A stretch of 64,000 nt of DNA from Minutocellus sp. GHC0000111. Taxonomy: Eukaryota. The stretch spans positions 558,001 to 622,000 of the forward strand of contig OZ361259.1 in the NCBI GenBank assembly GCA_977018835.1, in the 5' to 3' direction. The stretch's first letter is position 1; the number at the start of each line of letters is the position of its first letter. The translations under genes were made by a program, and so were the position numbers. This document shows positions 2,400-35,309 of this stretch, one piece after another. The notes under the pieces are model-generated. The model made no database searches, was not told the DNA's origin, and worked only from the letters and a program-made list of their open reading frames with translations.

Positions 2400-3720
2400 T
2401 CTGCACCCACCCACTTTTGCCACCGGGGGAAAAGTCACGCACAAAAAGCGATGACGACGCACGAAAATTTGCTCTCATTGGCGGCCGATTCGGGGGCGGA
2501 TGCGAACAAAAACCACAACAATCAACCACACAAACATTTTCATACATATCTTGGGCGTGTGTCTCTGCATTTCTGGGTGGATTGGGCGGCTGTGGCTCTC
2601 ACGGTGTCACTTCTCATCCGCGGCCCTTTTTCGCGCACTCGAACACAGGTTGATTGTTTTGATTTGTGTTTTCTCATGCAACAGCATGCCAATCAAGCTG
2701 AAACTTTCGCATGCGTAGCGCAATGGTATCGGCCAGCCTCGGGAATGCCCACATCTTGCCTTGCAAATGTGTAGCGGCCAGGAGCGGGGGTCACCATGAT
2801 GAGCTTCGTTCGGGAGGAAAAATGGACGGACGTCGGTCTTTCCGTCATCCGACAACGCGAGCGAAGTTAGCAAAATCTCCAATGTCCTGAAGTGCCTCAC
2901 CTAAAATGGGACCAACTCCCCCTCGATGGCTCAGCCTGTGTGCGGAATTTTCGAGCCGGACCTTCGATGTCCCCAACCTTGAATGTGTCTAGAGTGGGGA
3001 CGCAAGCGAGGCAGGCCGGCTCGATCAAGTCTTTTTGCCATGTTTCAGGGGGAAAAGTTGGTCCGGCAGGAAGTTGCGACTTTTCCGTGCTTGGAAACAC
3101 GGACGACGGAAAGACGAATGTCCAGTTTTTGGGTCGAGCGGCTCACCTAAAGCTGGACCAACTCACCATCAAGTTTGTCAAAGAATCAGTTCCAGTGCTC
3201 TGTCACCGCGCCCTTTCCTCCGCCGATCACCATCACTCCTGCATCTTTGGTCATTTGGGGGGCGAGTCGGCATGGGCGGGGCCTCACCGATGATGATCTT
3301 TGTGGACACAACAATGGCCGTGGCAAAAAAAGGGACAAGAGCTGCTGAAATTCCGGAAAAACGAGTGAGTGTTCCTCCTTTTCGCCACGCACCACCGGAC
3401 CAGGTGCACAGTCCACCCACCCAACAGCCACTTCAACACTGTGCCGACCATTTGCACACGGTGGCCGGAACATGGCACACATCCTCAATGCAATCTTCCG
3501 GCCAGAAGTGACAGATTGCCACCTCAGCAGAGGCAAAAAATCGGCCTTCAGGTGGATTTGCTGGAACTCTGTCCACTGTTCCGAAGGACATGTTTGCCCT
3601 GAAATGGAAAGAAATTGACAAAGATGATAATCAAAAGCGATGCAGGCGGCATGGTTACACTTACAATCCGTCAAAACAACGAAGTTGACGACTCTTTTGT
3701 GGTTCATTGTTTTTCGTGAA
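2400..3720. mobile_element. Degenerate TpA-depleted transposon relic with short internal repeats
   Basis: Imperfect inverted pair (ggacgtcggtctttccgtcatcc ~2827 vs ggacgacggaaagacgaatgtcc ~3101) and direct pair (ctcacctaaa..ggaccaactc ~2896 and ~3142). Almost no TA dinucleotides. No convincing intact ORF. Confidence 0.4.
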
Positions 3721-4009
3721 GCCTAGTCTTTCAGCAAAAAGCCTTGCTGCAACAGCACAATCTGTTGCCATGAAACTTTCTCCAGTTCAAAGGAAAAGTC
3801 TTCATTCTACTGTGTAGGTTTGTACCAGAAACCTACTCACATGACTAACAGATACAGCCGTACATGCAAGCACATGTTTTTTGTTAGCAGTTGACGTTTG
3901 TTCAACCTATTTTCCAATCGTTTCACAATGCAAGTGTCATGCCTAGGTGCGTAGATAGTGTTAACAGCACATGCGTGTTTTACAGACTCGCTAGCTAGGC
4001 CTACCTGCG

Positions 4010-4090
4010 CACTCATTTATTTCAGAACCTACCTACGTAGCACAGAAACACTCATTTATTTCAGAACCTACCTACGTAGCACAGAAACAC
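4010..4090 (+). repeat. 39-bp tandem duplication
   Basis: cactcatttatttcagaacctacctacgtagcacagaaa occurs twice, with no spacer. Confidence 0.95.
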
Positions 4091-5010: not shown

Positions 5011-6017
5011 ATCTCCTACAATTTCTCCATTTACTTCTTCTCTATGGAATCTCCAAATCTCCTACACCTACTACACTAGTACTAGTACCTTTTCCTACCG
5101 TCGGCACTACGTCGGTTATGTGCCTACTACTGTGGCCTACCTACTACGTAGTACTACCTGTGCTGCTCTACCTACGTGTACGTAAACATTTTTCATATTA
5201 CTAGTGCTTCTGTTATGTTTCTAGTGCATTGCTTCTCTCCTCACCACATAGGGGACCGAGATGCTGCTGCCACCCAATACTTTAATGTTTACACTCTGCC
5301 TAGAAGAAGGCCGAATACTTCAATTTTTAAAGTACTATGTTGTTTAAACTACTACGGTACGTAAAACAACATCGTTACACAACTGTTACCAATTGGCACA
5401 TCACGTGCTCTCTCTGCCTGCACATGCATGCATTTACATTACATTACACCTTCACTTCCCCAAAGACAGACGGGATTTGAAATCACACTTACACTAATGA
5501 AGAAGCCAGGACATGACGTTGCCGACAGAGGGTTGACAAGCACCAAACGAGGGGATTAGCGACGGAGGGGAGGGGCCCTGGGGAGCAGCCGTGCTACAAA
5601 AACACGCGACAATGCATGCACTGTTGAACGGCCGAGTGCGTGCATGTGTTCCTGGCTGGCTGCCAAAGAGCAGAGCTGCTGCTTTCTGGTGCGAAAGAGC
5701 GACCGACGTGGCTGTGCCCAAGAGCTCTCTCGTAGGAACAGGTGCAACGGAAAAAAGAAGATGAAAGACAAGTGCGCCATGTGGAAGACGCTTTTTTCTG
5801 AGAGGGTTAGGGTTCGCCGTCGCGACGCCGCTCAGAGGCCGCCGTCTCGAACAGCTCTGATTGAAAAATACGGTACCGTTCATTGTGCCAGTATTGTGCA
5901 CTGATTTTTTTACACCAACACACACACTCCTTTATCTTCTATCGGATCGGCCTAAAGTATTGTTGCCCTCGGAAAAATGTTCATCAGGGTCGTTTGTTGT
6001 GCCGTGAATAGACCAAA

Positions 6018-7664
6018 ATGGCGGCAGTGGTAACCTTTCCTTCCCCATCCAAATCACAGCAGATCTCACTGATCATATTTCTCAGCACTGGTCTCATTGT
6101 GGTTGCAAATACGATGTTATGCATGATAACACCTCTGGACTCGTCACAATCGTCTAATTTTCGTCGATCTGGCGTCTTCACGCTCTCACCGCATGATCCT
6201 TTTGCTCCTTTTGTGGACATTGAGTTCACCAAATCAACCTTCGATCACAGCAAAACATTGCATTCTTCGGTAAAGTGTGCAAATAGTGTTCAATATGCAG
6301 GCGCTACGGAAGCTGATAGAGCTCACAAAGAAATCATGTCTCGATCATGCAAATATTCCAACCTCTTTTACCGACCAAGTGACAAAACATTCCACTACTT
6401 CCCCGGGCCAAAGGAAAATGACCTGTACACACTTTTGTCCGAGGAAAAGAATGATACAATTTCAGTTGTCAAAGAGTTCAAACAAAAAATGAGTGTTTCG
6501 ATGGATCAATCAATTTCGACTGGATCTTTAGAGAATACAGCTGTCAAATTTCACGCTGCAGCAAAATGGTCACCGATAATTCACTTTGGAGAGAATCCAC
6601 CAGAATCATTGTCGTACAGCATTGCAGCGACAGGCAATAGGCAGGATCTTGTATTTACGATGTACCGAACATTTTATGGTTTCAACTTGGGCCACTTCAT
6701 CTGGGACGAAATGCTGCCTCAATTCAATCTTTTGGACATATTTGATTTAGTGGGCAAGCAGACAAGGCATGTCCCTTTCTTTGTTGAGCTGCCAAGCAGG
6801 ATTGATGAATGGTATCGATGCCACCCAAATTTTCGACCCCGATTTGACGACTGTGTTAAAATGTATCATAAATGGTTTCCACCACTACTAAATGTTTTGA
6901 CAGATCAAGCAACCGGAGACATATTGCGAACAGGAAACTGGTTGCAAGGCAAAGATGCTGTTGGTATGGGGCTTAACAATGTACCCGCTGACAATGCAAC
7001 CACTGAAGAGAAATGGGCAAACACCAAGAAAACAAGAGCTTTTCCCGGGCGCAATTATAACACATTAATGCCCAATACATCTTGGGTTGTACTACCGACT
7101 GCACTGGCGGGCATAGGTCGCTTAAACTATGCTGCGTGCTTTGCTGACTGCACCGCTGGCCGATCGGCGCAACGATATAGATTTCGAAACTTTGTTTTAG
7201 AAAATATTTTAGGAACAAATAGATTCACCGAGATCAATGACAAGACTCCTCAAACATACATTACATTTTCGCTACCAGGTGGCTCTAGCCGCCCGGGCGA
7301 AGTCAGTTTCTTTGAAAATTTTATCTTTGCAGCGAGAGAAAGATATGGGGCAAATCGAATAAGAGTGGAAGACATGGCGAATTTGTCCTTCAAAGAGCAG
7401 GCAGAGTTGACAATGGACACAGCAGTGTATGTCAGCAACCATGGCGGGGGCAGTTCCTCGAGTATATTTCTTCCTAAAGGGTCCAGCGTTCTTTTATACC
7501 ACACACCGAATTTGAAAAGAGACCGCATATATTACGAGACTTTGTCTTACCTGCAGACAGTGTGGGTGCCTCTAGAGGATCGCAATAACACTATGAAATT
7601 GATGGGAGTGGTCGAGGCAGCACTTGAGACAACATCAGGTTTTTATCCAGACTTTTCAATGTAG
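6018..7664 (+). CDS. Glycosyltransferase family 61 (DUF563)-like protein, 548 aa
   Basis: Intact ORF with an N-terminal TM helix, NLGHFIWDE, and the C-terminal DMANLSFKEQAELTMDTAVYVSNHGGG..IFLPKGSSV typical of GT61. Confidence 0.8.
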   Translation: MAAVVTFPSPSKSQQISLIIFLSTGLIVVANTMLCMITPLDSSQSSNFRRSGVFTLSPHDPFAPFVDIEFTKSTFDHSKTLHSSVKCANSVQYAGATEADRAHKEIMSRSCKYSNLFYRPSDKTFHYFPGPKENDLYTLLSEEKNDTISVVKEFKQKMSVSMDQSISTGSLENTAVKFHAAAKWSPIIHFGENPPESLSYSIAATGNRQDLVFTMYRTFYGFNLGHFIWDEMLPQFNLLDIFDLVGKQTRHVPFFVELPSRIDEWYRCHPNFRPRFDDCVKMYHKWFPPLLNVLTDQATGDILRTGNWLQGKDAVGMGLNNVPADNATTEEKWANTKKTRAFPGRNYNTLMPNTSWVVLPTALAGIGRLNYAACFADCTAGRSAQRYRFRNFVLENILGTNRFTEINDKTPQTYITFSLPGGSSRPGEVSFFENFIFAARERYGANRIRVEDMANLSFKEQAELTMDTAVYVSNHGGGSSSSIFLPKGSSVLLYHTPNLKRDRIYYETLSYLQTVWVPLEDRNNTMKLMGVVEAALETTSGFYPDFSM

Positions 7665-8099
7665 ACTAGGCAAGAAATTGGGTGATGTATTTAGACATGC
7701 TGCACTAAATAAAGGACAAGAGCCAACACAGCACCAGGTGTATTTGATATTCATAGGGAGAAGATAAATGGAAGTTGCTGGGAGGGCCAGGGCATCGTCC
7801 AATAAAGTTCAAACATTCAACAGAATATAGTGCACCATGGCCGACAATATAAAATAGAATTGAATTGATATTGTAAATGTTTATTTTGTATTCAGCTGTG
7901 GCTGTTCTCCAGCCAAATGTCAGGCTGATTTGATACAAATCCAATGTCAAGTACCACCACAATGTGACGCCGGTAATCTTGGCACATGCAGCAGACACAA
8001 TCCATGCTAGGATTGGAAGCATGGGCGTCACTAATCCAACTACCGCATCGCTCAATCCTATAACACATGCCAACAGCCCTCCGAAAATATCAGGGCTCC

Positions 8100-8270
8100 A
8101 AACTAGAGCACATCAACAACGAACCTGAGTACGTGCGACACACGATCGGCAACATTTACTATTCCAGATGATGAATTAAACGATCTTGCTCACGCCATCG
8201 CCGAGGGCTTTGCAATCCTGGTCAGCGACGGGGCAGTGGCGAAGAAGCGGGCAGAGCACATGCGTGGGTC
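8100..8270 (+). mobile_element. Fragment resembling the RNase H region of a non-LTR retrotransposon
   Basis: Broken translation NEPEYVRHTIGNI..IPDDELNDLAHAIAEGFAILVSDGAV..AHAW. The VSDG...AW pattern resembles the first RNase H motif. Confidence 0.4.
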
Positions 8271-8271
8271 G

Positions 8272-8523
8272 AAAGGATTGTCTTGCACTTTCAAATAATT
8301 TGCTCGAAGCTGATTGGGGTTAATAAGAGAATGTTCTAATGAAGATCCAAACCAAAGAAATAGTTCTCACACAGTAAATACTCTTTTCCAGAATTTGGAT
8401 CAGTCCAAACAGCACATGCAGTGACAATTGGGACTTCCTTGATGCTGTCATACTTGTCAGTAAATGGTTGTACCTCACGAACCACATCGGAATATGTTAG
8501 TACAACCCAATTTTTACCGGCAA
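8272..8523 (-). mobile_element. ~250-bp diverged duplicate of the Copia protease region at 13292-13543
   Basis: Direct repeat at offset 5020 encoding AGKNW.VLTYSDVV.EVQPFTDKYDSIKEVPIVTAC.VWTD. Confidence 0.92.
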
Positions 8524-8799
8524 GACAGGACCAGGGTGACTCTTTGGGACAAAAGTGCACACAACGAATCTCTCTTATTGCACTTGCGTTTGTGTAAAAA
8601 TAATTCCTAATCAAACAACAAAACAATGCAAACACAATTAAATTCAACGCAGAGGTGCCACTCGTTCCCTAATGTCAACAACACTGGAATGCAATCCAAT
8701 CCAATCGACATAAAACTAAACTTTTCTTTCTTTTCTCTTTCTTTTGCTGTGGGTTCTGAAAAAACGAGTGAAATCCGGCGATAGCGGAATTCAGCGTTC

Positions 8800-9865
8800 C
8801 ATCCATCGTTGTTTTGTGTTGTCGGCACTCGCGTCTACGGAATGTTCGAAAGAGCGGCAAGTCATGGTCGTCAACTAGGTGCTCCTTGTGTTTGAAGTGC
8901 CGGCGGATTTTCTTGTTGCATGCATCGTAGTTTGTGCTTTCGGGCATGTTTTGAGAGAGATGGGAATGAATGATTGTTGTTGTTGTTGTCTTCGTTGTCG
9001 CCGCCGTTGCCGTCATTGTCATTGTCATCGTCGTCATCGTAATCTTGAAAGGAAGCAAGCAAAGTGCCGCGAATGAAGTCGATTGCCGAACATGCAACCG
9101 GACGACAAGCTGTGCTCACTGTGCGTAAAAATCTAGCTGGCATGCCTGAGACTCTCATCTTGTTGTCCTTTCTGTTTGCAGCTCGTGCAATGTCCTCGGG
9201 TGTTAGTTTGGAAAATGCATTGGCGAGAGACCTGCCACGAAGTGGTGTTTTACATTTGATAAATCCGCGCAGTGAGCACAGCTCACAGCTTGTCGTCCGG
9301 TTGCATGTTCGGCAATCGACTTCATTCGCGGCACTTTACTTGCTTCCTTTCAAGATTACGATGACGATGATGACAATGACAATGAAGGCAACGGCGGCGA
9401 CAACGAAGACAACAACAACAACAATCACTCATTCCCATCTCTCTCAAAACATGCCCGAAAGCACAAACTGGACCCAAAACAAATCGCCGCGCACGAAAGC
9501 ACATGCAGCACGTGCACATGTTACAAGTCTTACGAAATGCAGCATCGCATGAAGCAGCAACGAGAGACACATCTGCTACCAACAACATCAAGAATTGGAC
9601 ATGTCTGGTTCTTTCCCGCGTCAGAGCGCTCACCGGTCTTTTCGTCCTCGAGAAGCTAGACGAAGACCAAGACTGTTCGGTCGACCCAAAACTGTGGCGC
9701 ATGCTATCCTCCACCACGAAGATGGCAGTGTCAAACATGATGCATGCAACAAGAAAATCCAGCGGCACTTCAAACGCAAGGAGCACCTAGTTGACGACCA
9801 TGACTTGCCGCTCTTTCGAACACTCCGCAGACGCGAGTGCCGACAACACAAAACAACAATGGATA
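8800..9865. repeat. Imperfect fold-back (inverted repeat) of about 1.07 kb
   Basis: About 8928-9125 is the reverse complement of about 9266-9469, and about 8800-8927 of about 9739-9865. The spacer is about 140 bp. The right arm has an extra ~270 bp. Confidence 0.9.
9575..9700 (+). pseudogene. C-terminal PIF1/Helitron helicase fragment (motif VI)
   Basis: NNIKNWTCLVLSRVRALTGLFVLEKLD matches the Y(V)xLSRV..L.GL motif, with Tyr changed to Cys. Confidence 0.65.
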
Positions 9866-10154
9866 GAACAAGTAGAAATCGCGATCGGATCGCGACACGG
9901 CAAAGTGGGAGGTGCCGTTTGATCCCCTTCCTCTCTACCATTTGCGCCCAAATCGCGTGGATGGACGCTTCTCATGCGCACTTGTTCGTCGCGCGTGTCG
10001 TGGGAAAGACACAGTGCCAAGCGCGTGATTGTGTTGATTGGACTTGATGCAGCGCATAATTGTTGGCCATCGTGGCCTCCCCGGCGTTGGTTGTGAACGT
10101 CAAGGTTTCCTCCAAGTGCAACAGAGTGAAATCCGACAATGGCGGAATTCACCT

Positions 10155-13100
10155 CTGTAGCTCATGGCTTGTTGACTAACTTGAAACATGAAAACTACAA
10201 CTTGCTACTCCACGGACTACCTACTACGTACTACAGACTGCTACGTACACACGTACGTCAACAGGATTTACTCGGTCCCCGCGAATTGATTCCATCAATA
10301 ACATGGATCGATTCGACTTATCCAACAGTGTATCCTACACCGACCTAGACAAACTAGGAGTGACTTTGTACAGAGCCTGGTTAAAACCAGTGTCACGCAA
10401 CCAGAAAACTGACCGCTGCTCGTCGGGACATCTACATATGAAATATTTAACGAAAAATGAAACCACACAAATAATTCCTCCTTTCAGCTGTCAAAATCTT
10501 GGTAAGCAAATCAGCAAGATTTGTCTGACTATCTTCCTTTCCAACCACCATAATCTTAGCTGCAACTGATTCTCGAATAATGTGATAATTAATTGCATTG
10601 TGACGCTTGTGAAGAACTGACTGAGGAACACTAACATTCTTGACGACTCCAGCATTATCACAGTAGGTGTAAGCTGGACCTTGAAGATTCAATCCAAACA
10701 TCCTGAGTTTGTACCTGAGAGAAACAATAAGATCACGACAAATGCGCATAGAGACAAGCTTGCTGCCAAAAGTTGAGGATTCGACAGTATTCTGTCTTTT
10801 ACTGAACCAAATAATAGGAGCATTGTTCACATAAATGATAATACCACTGTGCGACCGTCTTGTAACAACATTACCTGCATGATTTGCTTGCATGTATACT
10901 AACCGATCGACCCAGAGGTTCGGGCATCTTGGGAGGCATTTCCTCCTCGACTTCACCATAAAATGATGTCCAATCTGCTGTCTCATTGAATGCACGATAA
11001 TCAACCTTTGGCTCCTTGTGATCATATGCAATGCGCCCCATGTTTGGGTGTCCCCGCAAATAGGCAAAGATGTGATACAGGGCATCCAAATGACCAACTC
11101 TCGGGCTTGCCTGATACTGCGATAACAATGAGACTTCCAGCATTGTGTCCAATCTTCCAAGCTCCACAGCCCATCTCAACATGCCAATAAGCTGGAGGTA
11201 CCTGGGAATAAAACAGAGTCAAGCTCAGTTGTAATGTCAACTTCTGGACGATAATTGCTTGGAAGGGGATTCTTGGCCTTTGAAGGGCTTCGAAGCTGCA
11301 TGTCTTTGCCATCTTCAGTCAATAAATTCTCGACCACCTTGACTGCATTCTGAACATATGTTTTGGAACTAGTACTCCATACTTCATGACCACCAGCTGT
11401 CTGCACCTTTGCAACATCAGCTCCCAGATAAATTTCTGGTGCCTTTCGACTCTCTGGCTTAATCTTGTAATGATCATCAATACCATCGGCAATTGTGTCA
11501 CATCGGTGAGAAACAATCAAAATATCATCAGTGTACACAAGCAGCATTTCATAATACTCATATCCATCTGGCTTTCGGGCTCTTTTGATCCAAACCTTCG
11601 GGTCAGCCAATGTAGATTCAAACTCCATGAATCGCAGTGCCTCTGCTAGCGCTTCTCTCCAAGAAAATCCAGAACTTTCTAGTCCATATAGGCTGCGGGT
11701 CAGGACACAAACCTTGCCCTTGTCTTCACCACATTCTGTGCCGCCTTCAAACCAAATCTTCTCGGCACACGGAGCATTAAGATATGCATTCTCCAAGTCA
11801 ATTGCCAAAACATCGACATCGTGAAGGGCAGCTGCTAAAAGACCAATTCGCACACTGTCCCTCGACACAACACTTGAATAAGTAATACCATCCGGGGCAT
11901 CTGTGGTATGGCCACCTGCACAGTATCTAGCTTTCCTTGTAAAATCCATCTTGACATCAAAAACAATATGATTTCGAATTTCTTGGTAACCAATCAATTC
12001 ACCAACTTTGCCCTTTCGAGCTTCATTGGGAGTAACACCATCCAGAGTCTTCCATGATACCTTGGCCTTAGACATTTCCTTGTTAATAGCATCTCGCCAT
12101 AAAGTGTTGCCATTGATTTCATCCAATTGTAGAGCCTCTTGTACAGATTTAGGAACCCTGACACCATACTTACTTGTGAGTTGTTCTCCAATACTTCTTT
12201 TTCACCTTGGAAATAATCCTGTTGCGTCGTCTCAAAACTGTTTTCACCCACCAAGCAAAAGCAGGTTCGTCCTGAATACGATTAGCAACTGCATATTCGG
12301 CAACTTCAACTGGATTGGAATTCTTGAGATCTTTAAGTTTCACCCAAGAGCTAGAACCGTCCTTCCATGATACTAATAATTCCTAGCCTTTTGTAGTTGG
12401 CTTCCTATGCTTGTTGTGGCCTCGATAAACATAAGCATCTTGCTCTGTAAGACCAGTACCATCCTTTCTGTGATCTTCGATTTCATCAAGCAATAAATAG
12501 GAGTTGCCTTCATCATCAATCTGTGCATACATATTCTCAGCAATAATATTGGCAGTAACCTTGTCCCGCGTACCATCTGCAAATTCAATCTCATAAGCGC
12601 GGGTATCAAGGATAGGGTTAGAATGTGCGGTACCAATCGTCTTGCCATCATCAGTACGAGCCCATTTTACAACACGGGCCCCTCGCTCATTGTTAGTGCC
12701 AACATCCATAACTAATTCCATGCCCAAATACTTATCAATCATCTCGTCTTCGTCATCAGGACGCTCATCGACAAGCATGTCACCATATTCGTCATCTCTA
12801 GGTATATTGCGCTCATCACGCCCATCATGTTCAAGTTCATCTGGCAATGGAACATCGGGCAATCGATATTTTTCTGCACCCTCTGGCAGCTCAACACGGT
12901 GATTACTGTCATTTCTCTTTTGTCAACATCATTTCGGGTTGCACAAGCAATATTTTCACTGGCAATCATTCGATCACAAAAGTACTGTAGTTCTGCATTC
13001 CTATAATATCCGTCGGCACTACTCATAGCTTCCATCTCCTTTTTACTCAATCCAGATGCTAATGAACAAATTGTCCTCATTTCATTTTCTTCAATGGTAC

Positions 13101-13910
13101 GAGAGACCTTAGATAAAGTGACATTACCAGGGTCCCACTGATCAGCTGTGATCACAATAACAGGAAGGTTAGACATTTCAAATTCAGTTGGTACACGAGA
13201 TTCGAAGCTGACAATCGTCCCCGTGGTATCAAAGGGAATAAAAACATCATCATCGTCATTTGTATTGCCTGAGATGCCAGCATCAGGTTCAAAAGGATTG
13301 TCTTGCACTTTCAAATAATTTGCTCGAAGCTGATTTGGGTTAATAAGAGAATGTTCTAATGAAGATCCAAACCAAAGAAATTGTTCTCACACAGTAAATA
13401 CTCTTTTCCAGAATTTTGATCAGTCCAAACAGTACATGCAGTGACAATTGGGACTTCCTTGATACTGTCATACTTGTCAGTAAATGGCTGTACCTCACAA
13501 ACCACATCAGAATATGTTAGTACAGCCCAATTTTTACCGGCAACACAAGTATCAGCATGTGTGTCCATTTCATTAGTACTGATAGTGCCGGGTTTTGTCT
13601 TATCCTGAGCTCGCAATGAGCTAATTCGGGCAATTCTTTTAGTGGAAATGACAGAAATTGAACGGGGTTTCTTTGGTAAAACATGAATCGATCTGTTTGT
13701 TCGACACTTGGGGTTAGCTGTAAAGTTTGTGAATTGATGGAGACCAACTAAAGACATCCAAAATGAAATAAAATAAACTGTGAAGGAAATAAAAGATGTC
13801 AATAGTCCTCCAATCATTCAGTTGTTGCGGTAAGCACCAGAACCAAATCCAGATCCATTTTGACTGCCGCGGTCAGGAATGGGCTGCTGCTGTTGTTGCT
13901 GCTGTTGGTT
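10155..13910 (-). mobile_element. Ty1/Copia (CoDi-like) LTR retrotransposon, internally deleted and frameshifted
   Basis: Protease-like EMDTHADTCVAG. RT motifs WRDAINKEM, FDVKMDFTRKAR, DLENAYL, SLYGL and LVYTDDILI. RNase H motifs PIIWFSKRQNTVESSTFGS, YCDNAGV and NLADLLTK. The integrase core is missing (join near 12900). A putative PPT (gcggggaccgag) precedes a partial 3' LTR starting TGTTG at 10263. A probable gag tail lies at 13818-13910. Confidence 0.93.
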
Positions 13911-14290
13911 AGGCCGGCCCTTGCGGGTTTGCAAAAGACAAAAACATTTTTTTCTTGTTTCTTTTTGTTTTTCCGGTCCTTCCGTCAACCAGCACGCAAA
14001 AGCGGATCCGCTCGTTTTGTTTTTGCTTTTTGTGCCGCAAGGCCGGATGACAACAAATTGCAAAAAGCAAAATGTAGCCTCTTTGAGCTGTGGCGCGGCC
14101 GCCGATTTCGAATTTCTTCGTCGACGAATGCCGACACGATGAACACAATGTTTTCGTTTTGCTTGGTGTGCATCGTCTCCAGGTGCACGGCTTTTGCCGA
14201 TTGCATGGTGGTGGCCGCTCATCGCAGCCGTTTGCGCATGCGTCACGAATCGCAATCGCTACGAGCATCAATCGGTCGATTGTTGATGCA

Positions 14291-14640
14291 ATGAAGCTCG
14301 GCGACGCAGCAAAGTTTGCAGCCGCCAATGCTGCAATCGACTCTCTCAGAGCTCGATGCGAAGTTGCTTCACTGGAAAGGCCAGCCTCCCTCCTCCGATG
14401 CTTTGATGCTGACGACGGCGAGCTCGATCTTGTGGAGCTTTCGCACCACATGATGAAGCAAGCCGATGCTGTCGAAAACAAGCTGAACGACATTCTTCTC
14501 GGCAACCCCCAGGACAACGAGGAGGTGGGCGATGACAACGAAGAGACGCCGTCAAAGAAGAGGCGCAAGCGCAAGCCGACGCTTGCCAGGAGGAACGAAA
14601 ACGGTGAGTTGGAGGCTGTCACTCTCCAAGACTGCACCCT
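14291..14640 (+). mobile_element. Possible N-terminal fragment of a PIF/Harbinger-type transposase
   Basis: KKRRKRKPTLARRNENGELEAVTLQDCT resembles N-termini of diatom Harbinger-like transposases (from recall only). Tyr-free, TpA-depleted, and cut abruptly at ~14640. Confidence 0.35.
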
Positions 14641-15875
14641 TGCTAAAACAAAACAACGAAATCGTTCTTCTGATCCACTGGGATAGTGGTGGAAGGTGAA
14701 TGTGGTGCTCTTCAACCTATCTGGGTCTATGGCAGCTCTGTGTTCAATTTCGTTGTAACCGCTGAGAAATCTTTCAACAGCTGTTACAATGCAGGCGTCA
14801 TCAGAATCAAGGTTGCGGAGAGACTTGTCAAAGAAAAAATGTCCCCCCTTTTTTGAGAACGTAGAGTTTGCGTGACCAACAATTTGATTGTTTGCTGCCT
14901 TGAATATCCTAAGATAAACAGTGGCAATGTCGGTACCGTTGGCCTTGTAGGACCAACCTCTATCTTGAAATGACCTGAGATTATGGAATATTTTCTCGCC
15001 ATTATGCTCCATCTTCAGCTCTTTCTGCGCCTGCAAGAACATAATGGAACCCAAATGGGTCCGTGGCTTCATATTTGGGCATAATTTTCTTTTCATTAAC
15101 GGCCAAATTTCTTCAAAAACATAGCTGGTATTGCAGCAGATTTGATTTGTGCCACTTGCATTACACGCAACATCTAGTTGACGCTCGACACTAGGAAAGA
15201 TGTCATGAAGTTTCTCTGAAATTTCCCAAGCAATCATATCGGGGTGACCGCCCCCATCACCTTTACAGCGATGCTCTGCCTGTGTGGTGTCTGCAAATCT
15301 GGAGAAATCTCCACGTTCGGCACAAACAGAGATGTTTCGCTTATCATTGATTGTATGCATGCACTCAAAGCCCAACTTTTTAATATATATTTTTTTCATC
15401 AATAGGGTGAATGTTAGTTCGGCCAAACTTTTCTCTCATGGTCTTTGCTACCTCGATGAATTGTTCGTACTGTCTTACTCCCTTCCTTCCAAATCCACTT
15501 AATCCAATCACAGGACCTGAGTACACGGTCAGGAATTCTTCTAGGAGAGGGGGCGGCTTCAGCTGTACTTCGTTCGAGTTGGCGCCAGTAAAATTGCTCA
15601 AGCCCTTACGAATCATTGCAACAATGGAAGATTGCTTATCACGGTAGTCTTGTTTGCAATAAAAATTTCCAAATACCAAAGCATCAAGCGTGTCTAATTT
15701 GGCTTTGATCAGCATTTCCACTAAAGCTCGCCAATTTTTAGCATGAAAGACAGGATTATTTGTCAGTGATACGAGAGTAGAGTTGTTAGCAAAGGACGCA
15801 GCAAATCAATTTGTGTGAGCTTCTCCTAATCCAAAGAGGAGAGTGGAATCTTTATTGAGATCTTCGTAGTTGATC
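14641..15875 (-). pseudogene. Sulfotransfer_2-like sulfotransferase fragment, truncated at both ends
   Basis: VYLRIFKAANNQI (5'-PSB-like) and CIVTA-VERFLSGYNEIE (3'-PB motif lacking RDP). Frameshift near 15390 and in-frame TGA at 15806. Confidence 0.6.
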
Positions 15876-18800
15876 AGGCGATCACTGGATTGGCAGACAA
15901 TAGTTTCTGTGATCTCCTCAACTCCGGCGTCGAGATCCCCGCGTCTCTTCTTTCGAAAGTTGAGAGCCCGCTCCAAGTGATCGGTGGCGATGTCGAGGAG
16001 AGACTTGGCCCCCAGGGTAAGCACTGGGGTGGCACTGGCATCATCAGACGACTCGGCACTGGTGCCGGGTAGTTCCTTATCAAAGACCAAAAGGTAGACC
16101 TCTGCCAAAGCCACGGAGGCATCGGCGATGGCATTATCTGTCATTGCAGAGCTATTACCTCCACGGGACAACTTGATTGCCTCGTCCAAATATTTGATGG
16201 CATTATCCTTTGCATCAGTATCGACCTTCCCGAACTTATCAGACGACAGGACAAGCATGGTTTTGTAGGTGGATCCCATCCGTCTCTTGATATTAGCGAT
16301 TTGCAGGGGATGCTTGGGAGTCTCGTCTTCGTTAGTATCGGCAGCAGCCGCTTCTTCTGCCCTTTTGTATTGCTCGATGGCCTTTTCGTAGTCAAGCGCC
16401 TTGAGATGCATGTTGGCCATTTCCAGCATAGCATCAGAGCGATCTGGCGCAAGAGAAAGTAATCGCTCGCAACAGTACTTGAGTTTCTCATCCATTGCAA
16501 CACCGCTGAAAGAAGTAGCGTCAAATTCTTCATCACGAAGAGAGTATACCGAATAGCCGTGGTTGGAGAGACCACTGTACACCCTGAGGCCCATGTCGAA
16601 GCTATCAATGGCAGCCGCATTATCTTTTTCTCGAATTTTGATCCGCGCAAGACGCTCCGACACATCGCCAAGCTCCAGATTAAGTAAGACGGACGAAGTA
16701 CCGCCCCATGGCGTCAAGGATGAAGGTTCAGCAAAGAGATGGAGCCATCTGGCCTCCATGGCCTCGAAGGATGGCATCTTGCCCTCCGCCGCTTTTACAG
16801 CATTGTAGTACTGCATTCCATTCTCGTAGCATTTTTGTGCATCCTTGGTCTTCTTGATCTCGTCACAAGACTTCCCCATGGCCCAGTACGAGGTTGCAAG
16901 GGCAATGTTGACCGCAATGGCAACCTTGGGATCGATAGATGGAGAAGGATAATCGTGAGTGGTATCCTCGGATTTCTTTTCTTCCTACGTCTTGTTTTTA
17001 TCGGCCGATGACTTCTCCTCGTCGCCACCTTCCTCGCCGTCGCCGTCGCCCTTGTTGGTATGGCTATCAGATCCAGAACTTGACTCCTTGGTATCCTTTG
17101 GACGTATTTGATCGGCAGCTTTCTCCATTAGCTTCACACACTCTTGAAAGCTCCCTATCGCCTCGGCATGATCACTCTCCCCTGCAGCAACGAGACCTAT
17201 GCGATAGTGGATGCTTGCCCATTCCATTTTCTCCCCGATTTTATGGTCGACAATATTATTTCCAGCGACGATGCCGTCTCCTTGGTTTCCCTCAGCCGTA
17301 AATGGATTTTGTTGGCCTCGGTTCTGCCGCTCGAGCACATCGAAAGCCGCCTTCAAACACTCTTGTGCATCGTCGAAGCGGCGCTTTCTGACATACGTGT
17401 TCCCAAGCAGAGTGAGAAGAGGAATGGGCGTGAAGTCATGGGGAAGATCACTTGAGTTGTCGGCAAGAAAAGCATCGTAGACTCGTCTGGCTTCTTCATA
17501 GTCGGCGATGGCTTCATCGTACGCTTTTTGACGGAAAGATAGACGACCCAATGCGATAAGGTCATGGAAAAGGGGAGCGAGCACGCTTGGCGCTTCTACT
17601 GCAAGGCCCCCCTTTGCGAGCCCGACAAGAAAATCTTTGCTTAGAGGCGTGTCCGGTGGCGATGGGAAGGACGACGCAGCACCCTGGATGGCGGGATTAC
17701 TGGCAGAATTAGCGGAACCATCGCCTCTGGCCATATTCAAGAGGGCTCGACGGCGATTCGTAACTGCCTCCTGGAAGCATTCTCTGGCATTCTTCTCGGC
17801 AAGGGCTCGGTCCGAAACAAGCAAGTCCGTTCCAGAACTGGTGAATGGAGACTCATATTCGATCTTGGCACCAGTCTGAGCAAGAAGGGTAACCTCGCTA
17901 TGCCCATGCCACCTCGCCGCAAGCTCGGCTGACTTTTCAATCAACATATTCCCCATGGTCGAATGTAGATCGGTTCGCAAGGCAGTGGCCTCACAGGCGC
18001 ACGATTCCTTATCGCAATGGCACTCGGCTAGTGCATCTTGGATGCACCTCTCGGCATCATTCCAACGCTTCAACTCAGTCAAGACTTTGCCCAAACATCG
18101 GAGGGAGTTGGCTAAATCGTCGTCGACGCATTGCTCGGGAGACGCAACGCCGCTTTCAGCAGCCGCCGCAGCCAGCTTTGCCTTGTTCTTCTTCGTGATG
18201 CGAACGCATTCGTTGTAACATCTCAGGGCCTCCCTCCAATTCTGCATCTCCACATGGATGGTGCCGAGATTGTGCAGCGTGTTGCAAACTACAATGTGAT
18301 GCTTGCCAACATGCTTGGTGTACAGCGACAGACTCTCCTTGTAAGCCATCAGAGCGCGATCAAAGTCTTTCTGCTTCACATCGTGACAATAACCCAGGCA
18401 GGTGAGCGAATCAGCGAGAAAGAGCTCGACTGAAACCATGGTATCGCGGAAGAAGAAGATCCGTCGATCTCGATCCTGCTCCCAGAGTTTTCGGGCCTTG
18501 GACTTCCCCGACGGAGAGCTATCGACGCGTGGCCCTCCGTCCTGGGTGAACCTACTCTTCCTAGCCGAAGATTCACCTGCCTTGAGCATTTCCGATGCCG
18601 AGCGGTATGCCTTTAGCGAATTGATGTAGTTGCTTACTTCGATGGATGCCACATCGGGGTGAGAAATTTCGTCTTGATCCATGACGGCAGCTTCGATGTA
18701 CTCCTGCTGACTCCGACCAAGCCTCACTCCAAGATGGTGGAGTGAACGGCCAACCTCGAGACAGAAAGACATGACCATAGCATTGTATGGGCGGCGTTGA

Positions 18801-21472
18801 TTCCTCTTTGCCTCGCTCGCCCTGTCCCTACGCCGCCGACTCGCTTCATCGGCACCCGTGCCAACTATTGATGCAACTCGTTCACCATCGACCCGATCCA
18901 AGAGAGCATCCATACCTGCAACAAGAGCACCCGATATAATCTTGTGAAAATTCTCGTCGATGGTCTTTGCGTTGCTCTGTGAATCCGCCGATATCACTGC
19001 CGATTGCGACAGGACATTGTAGGACTCCCAGTCAGCAAGATGGAACATCGTAGCATAGTACGGACCGAGAACATTGACTCTGGCCTGGAAGAAGCGGGGA
19101 TCCGAAAGGACCTGGTGCTGCTTCCTGCCTCTCCCTCGTCCCTGGTCAGATTTTGCTGCTGCTCCTGATGCCGTAGAAGCAACCGTTGCTCGTCGTAAGA
19201 ATAGAGGCAAATAGCGGACGGCATAGGCTTCTGGTAGATTCACCTCAAGGTCCTTGGGGGCCAGCGTTGAAAGGTTCGAATCATACCGATTCACGGCACT
19301 CGTTCCCCCATCAACACCGCCAAGCTGCAAAATATTACGCTGAAGCACCGACTCAGCAAAAACTTCCTCCCAAACAGTGCCCCGATTGGAATTTCGGATG
19401 CTACCACCCTCACTGGAGAGAAAATGCCGACCGATGCCACATCGAAGTCGGACCTCCTCTTCTTCGGCCATATTCTTCTTCTTGCTGCGATCGCCCGACG
19501 CCCCTTCCTTGTCATTCTTCTCACTGCTGCCACCGCCATCACCATCGTCATCGGCCATGCGACCGTACAAAATCTTCTCAATGTCGGTCCGATTCTCACT
19601 GTCAAAGTCGATCGCCCCCTTCCGTCGACGTTGACGCGTAGTGGCACGGCTGTACGCATCGTCATCGTCCATGACGGTACCATCACCCCCGGCACCGCCC
19701 CCCTGCATCCGTTGGCGTTCCAGTATCTGCGATGCCGCCTCCTCACCAGTACCACCGCCTGCACCTTCCTCCCGTCCTTGCTGATCATTCCCCGTAACGA
19801 CGGATCCCACCGAGTAACGTCGAAAGGCATTGAATTCGGGCGACAGCAGCGCTCGCAAAACCTTTTGCGTCATTCGTTTCCGTCGTCGTTCGGTATCTTC
19901 CGGCCTGGGCGGCGGCGGCGGCGGACCGGACGATTGCAAGTTGCGCTTCCGGCGCTGCACCATCACCGCCTCCATTCGTTTTTTTATTACCGCTGATACG
20001 AGTCCCTCGACGACCGACAGTGGCACGTACGGATTGACGGATATGTCCACGGGAAGGTCATTGATATCGAATGGGGGTATTGCTGTTGCTGCTGTTTCAT
20101 CATTACCTCCATCACCAGCTCCAACTTGATCATCATCATCATCGTTCCGCCGCCGACGCTTGGACGTGCCACCAGCAGCCTCCCCCGGCCGACCATGGAA
20201 CACCGTCACGTAGGCCCCCAAACAATCCACCAGAATCGATCGGAACGCTTGTACCTTGTGCTTGGTGCGCACGTCGTCGTCCCGGGTGGTGTGCACCGTG
20301 GCCGAACCGGCAATGGTGGAGGCGGCGTCGGTGCTGCCCAGGGCCGCCGCGGGATCCACCGGAAGCGAAAGGGTCGGTGCACTGGATGTGGCATCGTCGT
20401 TGTCGCTGTTGTCCATTTCGTCGTCAAGATCGAACCACTCGTCGTCGGATTCGGAATGCACCGACCCGTCGCCACCTCCATCATCAGCTCCATCTTTGCC
20501 TTGATCACCATCGCCACCAACATCATTGTCACCGTCGTCGTCATCCTCCGTCCCACTATTGCCATTGCCACCCCGACCGCCGTACGACCAGTACGCCCGG
20601 GCGGCCGACCAGATCCGCTCCTCCCACTTGTCCTCCTCTTCGATGGCCTCGGCCGATTCGAACTGCGTCGGCTGCTGCTGTGGCTGCTTCTTCGGCGGTT
20701 GTTTTTGTTGCTGCCGCCTTGCATCCCCGGCCTGTGCTCCATCTGGCTCCTCCTCCTCATCTTCTTGATCGTCGCCGAGGGATTGGTAGTATGGATCCTC
20801 ACATCCGTCGTCATCGAACACGTTCGAAGCCATGGAGGCATCGTCGTCATCATCGGCAGCACCGCCACCGACCGCCTGCTTCGTTGCGCCGCTGTGGACG
20901 CTGCCGGCCATGCCGCTGTGCACACTGGCAGCACCGCTGTGGGCGCTGTGAACACTGCGGGCGCTGGCCGCGCCGCTGGCAATGCTGGCGGCACCGCTGG
21001 CGCTGGCATGGCTGTGCGCGCGCGAGGGGGCGGAGGTGCCCGTGAGAGCGGAGACGTGGCTGCGGTTGTCGGACGGCTGCGGCGGACTGACGGCACCGAT
21101 GGAAGAAGATTGGCGGAGATGCCCGTCGAGATCGTTGGGGTTGCGCTGATTGGCATTGTTGTTGGTGGAGTTATTGGTGGTGGAGGGAGGTTGGTCGGCT
21201 ACCGCGGCCGCCAGTGCCTGGTCTGTGTCGTCGTGATCGTCATTATTATCGTCGCCGTCATGGTGGGATTGCGCACTGTCGTCATCGTTGTTGCTGCTGT
21301 TGTTGGGGAGCCACCCCCCGTTGCGCAGTTCTTGGATCCACCACGCACCCTCGGGTATTGGCCGTGCCGATGGGTTGGTGCCGTCGTCGTCGTCGTCGGC
21401 TGCCGTCATGATGGGAGAGCGGCGGCGTGGTGGGGACGGGATCTTTCGAGAAAAATGAGGGTGGGCGGTCAT
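15806..21472 (-). pseudogene. Large TPR-repeat protein with acidic low-complexity N-terminus; one in-frame TAG; 3' end apparently fused to the sulfotransferase fragment
   Basis: TPR-like helices (LADSLTCLGYCH..FDRALMAYKESL, TLHNLGTIH..WREALRCY, LGNTYVRKRRFDDAQECLKAA). ORFs 16985-21472 and 15806-16879 are in the same frame, separated only by TAG at 16985-16987. Confidence 0.75.
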
Positions 21473-21914
21473 GGCATGGCGGGCGAAGCAAGAGGGTCAT
21501 TTGAGGTAATAGCCGTACCTAGGTACAGCCGTACGTACGTAATTGGGGACCGATGACCCTGAAAATGGAAAGCAGTTTTGAAGCAGACTCATCATCCATC
21601 CACCTTTGAGCTCCCAGGTTTCCACCTGTCGGAGCAGTTTGGCTTTCATCGATTTCTTCGTCAGTCAATCTTCTTACGAATGACTGTGTGAGCCGTTTAG
21701 ATGATTCTTTGCTTGCTTTTTCGATCTAAAATGGTTGCCTGTTGGTGAACAGTTGGGAGAGACTTGAGCGACTCGAGGTCGGTCGCGTGGTTGCACACAC
21801 GCGCACGTGACTTGACGATCTGTTGACGGCTTAGTGGTTTGATTTTCCCCGGGAACTCCCCCGAATTTCCCTGGGGAACGTGTTTTTCCTGCCTTCAAAA
21901 CTGCCATTTTCCCC

Positions 21915-21988
21915 TGTTTTCCCCTAATTTCCCCTCTGTTTTCCCGTGTTTTCCCCTAATTTCCCCTCTGTTTTCCCGTGTTTTCCCC
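21915..21988 (+). repeat. Pyrimidine-rich 32-bp minisatellite (2.3 copies) containing CCCTAA
   Basis: Unit tgttttcccctaatttcccctctgttttcccg. Confidence 0.9.
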
Positions 21989-22699
21989 ACTTTCCTTTCC
22001 ATTTTGGGCCACCAAAGGGGAAGAGGGAAAGGGAATTTCAAACTAAGGTTGACGGCATTGTTGCGGCCGGGGGACGACGACGATGGTGGTCTTGGTTTTG
22101 TTTCTTGGACGTTGTGCTTCTTCTTGCTTTTTTCGCCGATGACCAACTCCGCCGACACGACGAGTTCCGAGGCAAGCGATCGCCTCAGAACAGCGCAGGT
22201 GCGCTTTTGCAGAAGTCTCGAAGAATCAATGAAGAACACTTGTGTCATGTTCGGGCACAGACAGCTCCTCCTACAAGTGTGGATTCGAACACGACGGGGG
22301 GATTTGTGGTCGCAGCAGGAGGCTCTCTTGGACCAGGTGAAGCAGCTGTACATGGAGAAGCTGCGGGCCCTCATCGCAAAGTCACCGGCCGCCCTCCAAG
22401 AAAGCGCCAGCAACGGTGACAACGTCTTCTCCGTGGAAAAGCAGAAGGAATGGGAGACGAACCCTGCTGCTTCAAAACTTCACTCATTAGCACTCGAAAC
22501 AAAACATCCAAACATTCCAACAGTGCAAATGCCTAAAACTGAGCTGGAACCAAGCAAGAACGCAAGCACGAAGATGGCCGCCCGCCCATGGGTATCGAGG
22601 CCAGAGCGGCATTTGACGATACAAGCACGTACAACAACTCGGAGCCACGAATAGACGCAGCAAATAATCCCCTCATACTCGCACACATAAATAATAACC

Positions 22700-35284: not shown

Positions 35285-35309
35285 TAACCCTAACCCTAAC
35301 CCTAACCCC
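35285..35309 (+). repeat. Interstitial telomeric repeat (TAACCC)4 + C at the duplication junction
   Basis: cgat|taaccctaaccctaaccctaacccc|aattttcg. Absent at both parental sites (6828 and 63766). Confidence 0.97.

Follow-up and report, generated by a model that had tools for sequence, protein, structure and literature searches.

The window, by which we mean the whole 64,000-nt stretch of DNA analysed, contains genes for DXP synthase (DXS) and for a protein of the diatom-rich DUF6824 family, along with a Copia reverse transcriptase, a PIF1 relic and TTAGGG-type repeats. Together with the species in which the Harbinger relatives named below occur, this content points to a diatom as the likely source. 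The PIF1 helicase relic (196–1932) appears to be Helitron-like and adjoins a co-oriented Methyltransf_22 gene, possibly through gene capture or insertion. The Copia retrotransposon relic occupies 10200–13850 on the minus strand (RVT_2, E = 1 × 10−16), and a set of nested, TA-poor inverted repeats (TA observed/expected, o/e, 0.25) lies at 8796–10150, with arms at 8796–8926/9739–9869 and 8929–9114/9284–9469.

A tandem duplication of 28,482 bp (6827–35284/35309–63766) carries a single mismatch, 27630 C/56112 T, located at a CpG. Contig depth inside the duplication is approximately 1.5–2 times that outside in read sets X1 and X3, and about equal in X10; this difference gives a weak hint that the duplication is real and sample-specific. 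A short (TAACCC)n telomere-type tract at 35285–35309 falls exactly at the junction, between DUF6824 and glycosyltransferase-61 genes that are both cut, and possibly represents telomere-repeat insertion at a repaired break.

TA-poor blocks and their surroundings

The initial annotation had counted one TA dinucleotide in 3001–3600 and three in 13861–14640. Both hand counts are exact and the depletion is real, with 31.0 and 42.1 TA expected, respectively (o/e 0.03 and 0.07). The abundance of TG (o/e 1.25) and CA (o/e 1.46) in 3001–3600 was likewise correctly described, as was the recovery of TA past 14641 (o/e 0.53 at 14641–15400). Since the window is TA-poor overall (o/e 0.55), both regions were tested against this background, yielding Poisson P values of 7 × 10−7 for 3001–3600, which is the minimum amongst 116 overlapping 600-bp windows, and 2 × 10−7 for 13861–14640. 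A sequencing artefact is ruled out by the presence of the same letters in contigs of three studies: 3265–4039 is covered by contigs of X1, X3, X5 and X10, and 13726–14900 is spanned by those of X1 and X3, in each case with 0–1 differing letters, X10 covering most of the latter region. X1 and X3 derive from study P1 (possibly the window's own source), X5, an RNA run, from P2, and X10 from P4; the best-matching read sets include sponge and marine metagenomes, and for X15–X24 the share of words was small or nil.

Three further regions for which weaker loss had been described are less clear: 22060–22480 gives P = 8 × 10−4, and 9470–10150 (P = 0.007) and 5500–5800 (P = 0.06) do not fall below GC-rich host coding DNA in TA o/e (0.35 for DXS and 0.26–0.32 for the 5′ end of a TPR gene). 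Segmenting the non-duplicated 35 kb into two states returned four blocks (2549–3626, 13848–14642, 20256–21503 and 21543–22488), and recovered neither 9470–10150 nor 5500–5800. The stretch at 5500–5810 (3 TA versus 13.6 expected, P = 0.06 against background) is not significant alone. A telomere-like motif, GGGTTAGGGTT, at 5803–5813 closes this weakly TA-poor stretch ahead of the GT61 gene.

The block at 20256–21503 is the GC-rich, low-complexity 5′ end of the host TPR gene, which displays 11 TA where pooled host codon usage predicts 29 ± 4. Its TA poverty is likely caused by strong GC3 (0.72), with spread from the neighbouring block a possibility. The intergenic block at 21543–22488 (9 TA versus 54.2 expected) harbours short tandem repeats and a 13-nt inverted repeat (21574–21586/22467–22479), and is possibly a non-autonomous element; TG and CA are hardly raised therein (1.07 and 1.11). 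Such regions bear on an alternative in which no special process exists: composition or selection would keep TA scarce at the GC-rich ends of transposons and at gene 5′ ends, with the extreme blocks forming the tail of this distribution. Host coding DNA reaching o/e values of 0.32–0.35, and the missing TG/CA gain at 21543–22488, are in keeping with it, and composition or selection probably does explain 5500–5800 and the TPR 5′ end. As an account of the extreme blocks it is distinctly improbable, for reasons that begin with the block at 3165–3627.

This TA-free block, the core of the finding, has 0 TA versus 25.3 expected in 463 bp at 53 % GC, which composition does not predict; TG and CA are raised to 1.58 and 1.44, and the ApT o/e is 0.95. 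It is low-copy to approximately 3390 and thereafter of single-copy depth. TAA and TAG are absent from both strands, so that the suggested loss of these stops is real in the eroded blocks, but many of the window's long ORFs lie antisense to ordinary genes. The six read-through frames of 3165–3627 gave no Pfam match below E = 0.1, and across 52 ORFs of the TA-poor blocks, taken together with six read-through frames, no Pfam match fell under E = 0.04. A search with one frame amongst longer proteins found no homologue, which is weak evidence, and no paralogue of 3389–3627 was present in the contigs searched. Because nothing matched, the label of transposon relic is unproven for this block. TA-rich motifs (TACCTACGTAG-like) at 3990–4090 and 5060–5400 adjoin TA-free blocks and are left intact, and the border is therefore sharp; a 39-bp direct repeat (4010/4049) lies within the TA-rich stretch beside the TA-free block.

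The second extreme block corresponds to a truncated PIF/Harbinger transposon, of which the 5′ end is preserved at 13912–14640 on the plus strand (2 TA versus 39.9 expected). Its translation shares 88 % identity over 111 aa with the N-terminus of P0002, a protein with the domains PF04827 and PF13359; Plant_tran/DDE_Tnp_4 transposase homology is thus present, with the catalytic part and the 3′ end absent. The piece sits inside a Copia gag region of normal TA content, behind a TTA that we take to be a typical Harbinger target site. CG is not depleted (o/e 1.22). Truncation is by a 265-codon open frame at 14641–15435 on the minus strand, of normal TA content, for which the only match is a weak one to S-AdoMet_synt_N (E = 0.047). 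No paralogue of the Harbinger 5′ end was found in X1, X3 or X10 apart from a short terminal match; named relatives come from Fragilaria crotonensis, Nitzschia inconspicua and Attheya. P0002 and P0003 have no Tyr in their first 100 residues, retain Tyr in the catalytic part, and share a His at a column where 6 of 12 more distant aligned relatives have Tyr. Since both N-termini are Tyr-free, the 5′ end of this family was possibly eroded before landing here, and may have been TA-poor already before insertion at 13912; the same shared feature is also compatible with a compositional origin.

With regard to locality, confinement to transposon relics had been claimed, and this is only partly correct. 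The repeat at 2431–3164 (described below) and the Harbinger end are eroded, whilst the Copia (TA o/e 0.65) and PIF1 (0.44) relics are near background and spared, 3165–3627 is tied to no element, and the TPR 5′ end is TA-poor as well. A duplicated Copia piece (8266–8527/13286–13547) differs at 2 of 28 TA and 2 of 55 AA sites, with no excess at TA. A trigger by duplication, as in RIP, is not supported by the 28.5-kb tandem duplicate, where none of 969 TA steps has changed, although this copy could be of very recent origin or a product of assembly. The feature is real, with the window a modest example of it, its blocks being small and the main one matched to no element.

Variation between copies of the 2431–3164 repeat

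The region 2431–3164 is a high-copy, interspersed, non-coding repeat, recognised from contig depth and varied flanks, that is partly TA-eroded (9 TA versus 40.8 expected). Its summed contig depth in X1 is approximately 5,600–19,900, as against 143–197 in single-copy DNA, a ratio of around 40–140 that is not a strict copy number. Other copies run into different flanks at 2431, 2918 and 3164, and the repeat appears to be made of nested MITE-like pieces. A scan of viral contigs for exact repeat motifs returned 0 matches.

Variants were analysed for the 27 rows in 2431–3300 amongst the 40 of 135 rows listed, 13 rows beyond 3700 being left out. These 27 comprise 15 T[A>G], 7 A[A>G] (5 of them from the RNA run X5), 2 G[A>G] and 1 C[A>G], together with a CpG transition and a transversion, such that the 5′-neighbour order for A>G is T >> A > C or G. 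Within 2530–2860, all nine majority-state TA steps are TG or CA in some copies amongst the variant rows listed, with few other adenines varying, a pattern that composition does not predict. In the same listed rows, A>G affects 12 of 18 TA-context adenines and 8 of 141 others (Fisher P = 5 × 10−9), or 11 of 18 and 3 of 141 when rows seen only in X5 are set aside; the P values for this interval are approximate, as the variant table is partial, the copies are non-independent and depth is not a copy count. The proposed loss of TA to TG/CA is hence supported between repeat copies as a context-specific change, and a composition-only reading of 2431–3164 is contradicted.

At 7 of the 10 listed sites where at least about half of the depth differs from the window, and which were taken as window-derived changes, the window has TG or CA and the others TA. 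Most other copies have TA, and the window TG or CA, at 2666, 2678, 2752, 2758, 3003 and 3042; for 3252 the share of other copies with TA is approximately half or above. Both TG and CA outcomes occur in the one window copy, indicating change on both strands. For the TA step at 2752–2753 the window reads CA, many copies read TG and one X5 contig has CG; already-changed sites can therefore be hit again. The inverted arms at 8796–10150, compared using the window alone and independently of the contigs, differ at 3 of 7 TA-context adenines versus 2 of 54 AA and 0 of 45 GA (2 of 99 for AA and GA combined).

The minor AA context fits either a deaminase or DNA polymerase eta (pol eta), whose errors follow a WA motif. 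Error-prone repair synthesis at repeats by a pol eta-like enzyme, producing A>G at WA with TA above AA, would thus account for the 7 AA changes amongst the 27 listed rows. We consider it unlikely, given that AA is unchanged (0 of 439) between the near-identical Harbinger loci described below, and that, in the part of the preprint available, 230 of 231 mutations in Bigelowiella natans are transitions, all on TpA (Mettrop et al. 2026; 10.64898/2026.01.13.699255).

Direction and spread in related Harbinger loci

Pairwise comparisons are symmetric, and polarity within the window follows a majority rule over a partial variant table. Both points would accommodate the opposite polarity, with the other copies having undergone RIP-like CpA>TpA change, or else GC-biased gene conversion. 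The evidence on direction comes from 80 related Harbinger loci from metagenomes, scored at 10 conserved Tyr codons. Eight of these loci have 5–8 of the codons replaced, always by TGY or CAY, with 0–3 replaced in the other 72. The eroded eight represent five families; a single microbial-mat assembly supplies five of the loci, and the remaining three, close relatives of those five, stem from other records. As read from these sequences, the process runs from TA to TG/CA, in agreement with the direction originally proposed; the conserved-Tyr loci that fix it belong to another organism, and so fix the direction of the process rather than that within the window. Replacement of Tyr by Cys or His at conserved transposase sites is, moreover, not predicted by composition. 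Amongst 49 three-copy singletons, from an alignment that is poor over its last 90 columns, there are 11 T[A>G] versus 4 of the reverse, and gene conversion would not single out TA. Given conserved-Tyr polarity in five families, the opposite polarity or gene conversion is very improbable.

Two near-identical loci, L010 and L012, differ at 9 of 213 TA versus 1 of 792 AA and GA sites (P = 6 × 10−6). The signature was not observed in two control DNA pairs, which differ at 0 of 491 TA (L064/L070) and 1 of 195 TA (L051/L054), nor in 10 Harbinger protein clusters, where Tyr>Cys/His makes up only 3 of 546 changes versus 5 in reverse. These clusters contain 140 listed members, including some from Nitzschia inconspicua and Fragilaria crotonensis, and favour near-intact copies; their leading changes are of CpG type (D>N, R>Q, V>I and R>C). 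With the signature in 8 of 80 loci and in none of the other pairs or clusters, the process looks patchy across lineages.

Strand coordination was not supported overall, 18 of 30 neighbouring changes being on the same strand (P = 0.18) and DNA run tests giving P > 0.5. In one Harbinger copy (L013, 6001–7599) all eight changed conserved Tyr codons became Cys, on the same strand, with other families mixed; this may possibly reflect a single strand-biased burst.

Proposed mechanism and comparison with known systems

We regard the TA-free blocks as very probably the scars of a locally targeted TpA to TpG/CpA mutation acting on some DNA-transposon sequences. With regard to chemistry, a TadA/ADAT2-like host deaminase, acting A-to-I on DNA adenine, has about an even chance of being the agent. 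Such an enzyme, preferring a 5′ T, would convert the A following T to inosine, which would be copied as G to give TpG, or CpA via the other strand. TadA-derived editors do prefer a 5′ U/T. Its action would be aimed at a subset of mobile DNA on both strands and at a low rate, targeted perhaps by silencing marks or small RNA and not by duplication itself, with changes presumably accumulating slowly over many generations and not in one burst. A role in defence against mobile DNA seems plausible; any such defence is leaky, as the 2431–3164 repeat is still abundant despite erosion. Against this scheme, neither the two relics (Copia and PIF1) nor the 28.5-kb tandem copy is eroded. Nor are changes coordinated by strand overall (18 of 30), as they might be with a deaminase moving processively along one strand. 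No deaminase was found among the 36 window ORFs scanned.

As TpA is palindromic, the lesion could equally be on T. The same targeted process might thus act through a modified base, either T oxidised at TpA (TET/JBP-type 5hmU/5fU mispairing with G) or a modified A that deaminates or miscodes. T[A>G] is [T>C]A on the other strand and variant data are blind to which base was altered, and the slow, unclustered, two-strand pattern fits a chronic mark. Eukaryotic 6mA, however, is situated at ApT, is linked to transcription and shows no correlation with ApT depletion in the accessible part of a published study (PMC12695648), and is thus an unlikely precursor. ApT is also not consistently depleted here (o/e 0.95 in 3165–3627), and a TpA-specific modification was not encountered in the literature searched. 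A modified base is, overall, unlikely, and the deaminase is retained as the working chemistry.

The RIP of ascomycetes (RID/DIM-2) responds to duplication during the sexual cycle and makes C>T changes, mostly CpA>TpA, thereby adding TA. The likeness lies in dinucleotide-specific transitions within repeats that destroy coding capacity. Here, in contrast, TA is removed and not created, a 28.5-kb near-perfect tandem duplicate, perhaps a very young one, is untouched, and RIP-type C:G>T:A change is not found, the direction being opposite. ADAR edits RNA with one-strand A>G change, and AID/APOBEC enzymes make strand-coordinated C>T changes. Deamination-type transitions, a 5′-neighbour preference and targeting of repeats or viruses are shared with these systems. 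Unlike with ADAR, the affected sequences include DNA transposons lacking an RNA intermediate, with both strands changed in one copy, and the strand coordination of APOBEC is not seen. Deamination of 5mCpG in diatom transposons is similarly a transposon-associated transition process, but removes CG and not TA, whilst the Harbinger block retains CG at an o/e of 1.22.

Some diatoms are transformable and knockout-capable, so the enzyme becomes findable, and its gene could be sought by comparing cases with and without the signature, given the patchy presence (8 of 80 related loci and 0 of 10 protein clusters). A natural genomic A-to-I editor, if such it is, would be of interest for genome defence and base editing. 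Removal of TAA and TAG can also mislead gene prediction and transposon dating.

No report of TA-specific hypermutation in diatoms was found in the literature, coverage being mostly of papers outside subscription. A Psammoneis genome paper (PMC12718438) uses none of the terms TpA, dinucleotide, RIP, mutation and methylation, and the accessible part of a Prasinoderma paper (PMC11884799) makes no mention of TpA and is not relevant. The signature itself, presented in the initial annotation as a candidate new system, has a precedent in the chlorarachniophyte B. natans, where a preprint, in its available part, describes hypermutation at TpA in NCLDV and virophage sequences integrated into the genome (Mettrop et al. 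2026; 10.64898/2026.01.13.699255). In mutation-accumulation lines the change arises de novo in foreign DNA: two viral inserts gained 231 de novo mutations, of which 230 were A>G/T>C, each of them at a TpA. The rate, raised in a subset of lines, was approximately 1000-fold that of the background. TpA-depleted genes were enriched in DDE and reverse-transcriptase domains, an ADAT2-like deaminase was proposed, but not proven, and ADAR is described as preferring a 5′ U/T (Mettrop et al. 2026). The words 'diatom' and 'stramenopile' are absent from its main text.

As far as that text extends, the two cases share TpA to TpG/CpA change on both strands and, in part, its local occurrence in foreign-type DNA, and an ADAT2-like deaminase is proposed in both; here A:T>G:C transitions concentrate on TpA on both strands, as hypermutation of the B. 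natans type requires, save for the minor AA context. B. natans belongs to the Rhizaria, its targets are large viral inserts (the NCLDV one single-copy) and its rate is measured, whereas the present case is a likely diatom with sub-kilobase DNA-transposon pieces and near-complete erasure, known from sequence. The signature in diatom transposons is likely TA-specific hypermutation as described in that unrelated alga, extending the process of one chlorarachniophyte preprint to a second SAR branch and to transposons. More tentatively, and with somewhat less than an even chance, Stramenopiles and Rhizaria may have in common a natural defence that edits DNA adenine under sequence guidance and strips foreign DNA of TpA; in diatoms this defence would operate in only some lineages, on particular DNA-transposon families and ends, with sharp borders and no response to duplication as such.
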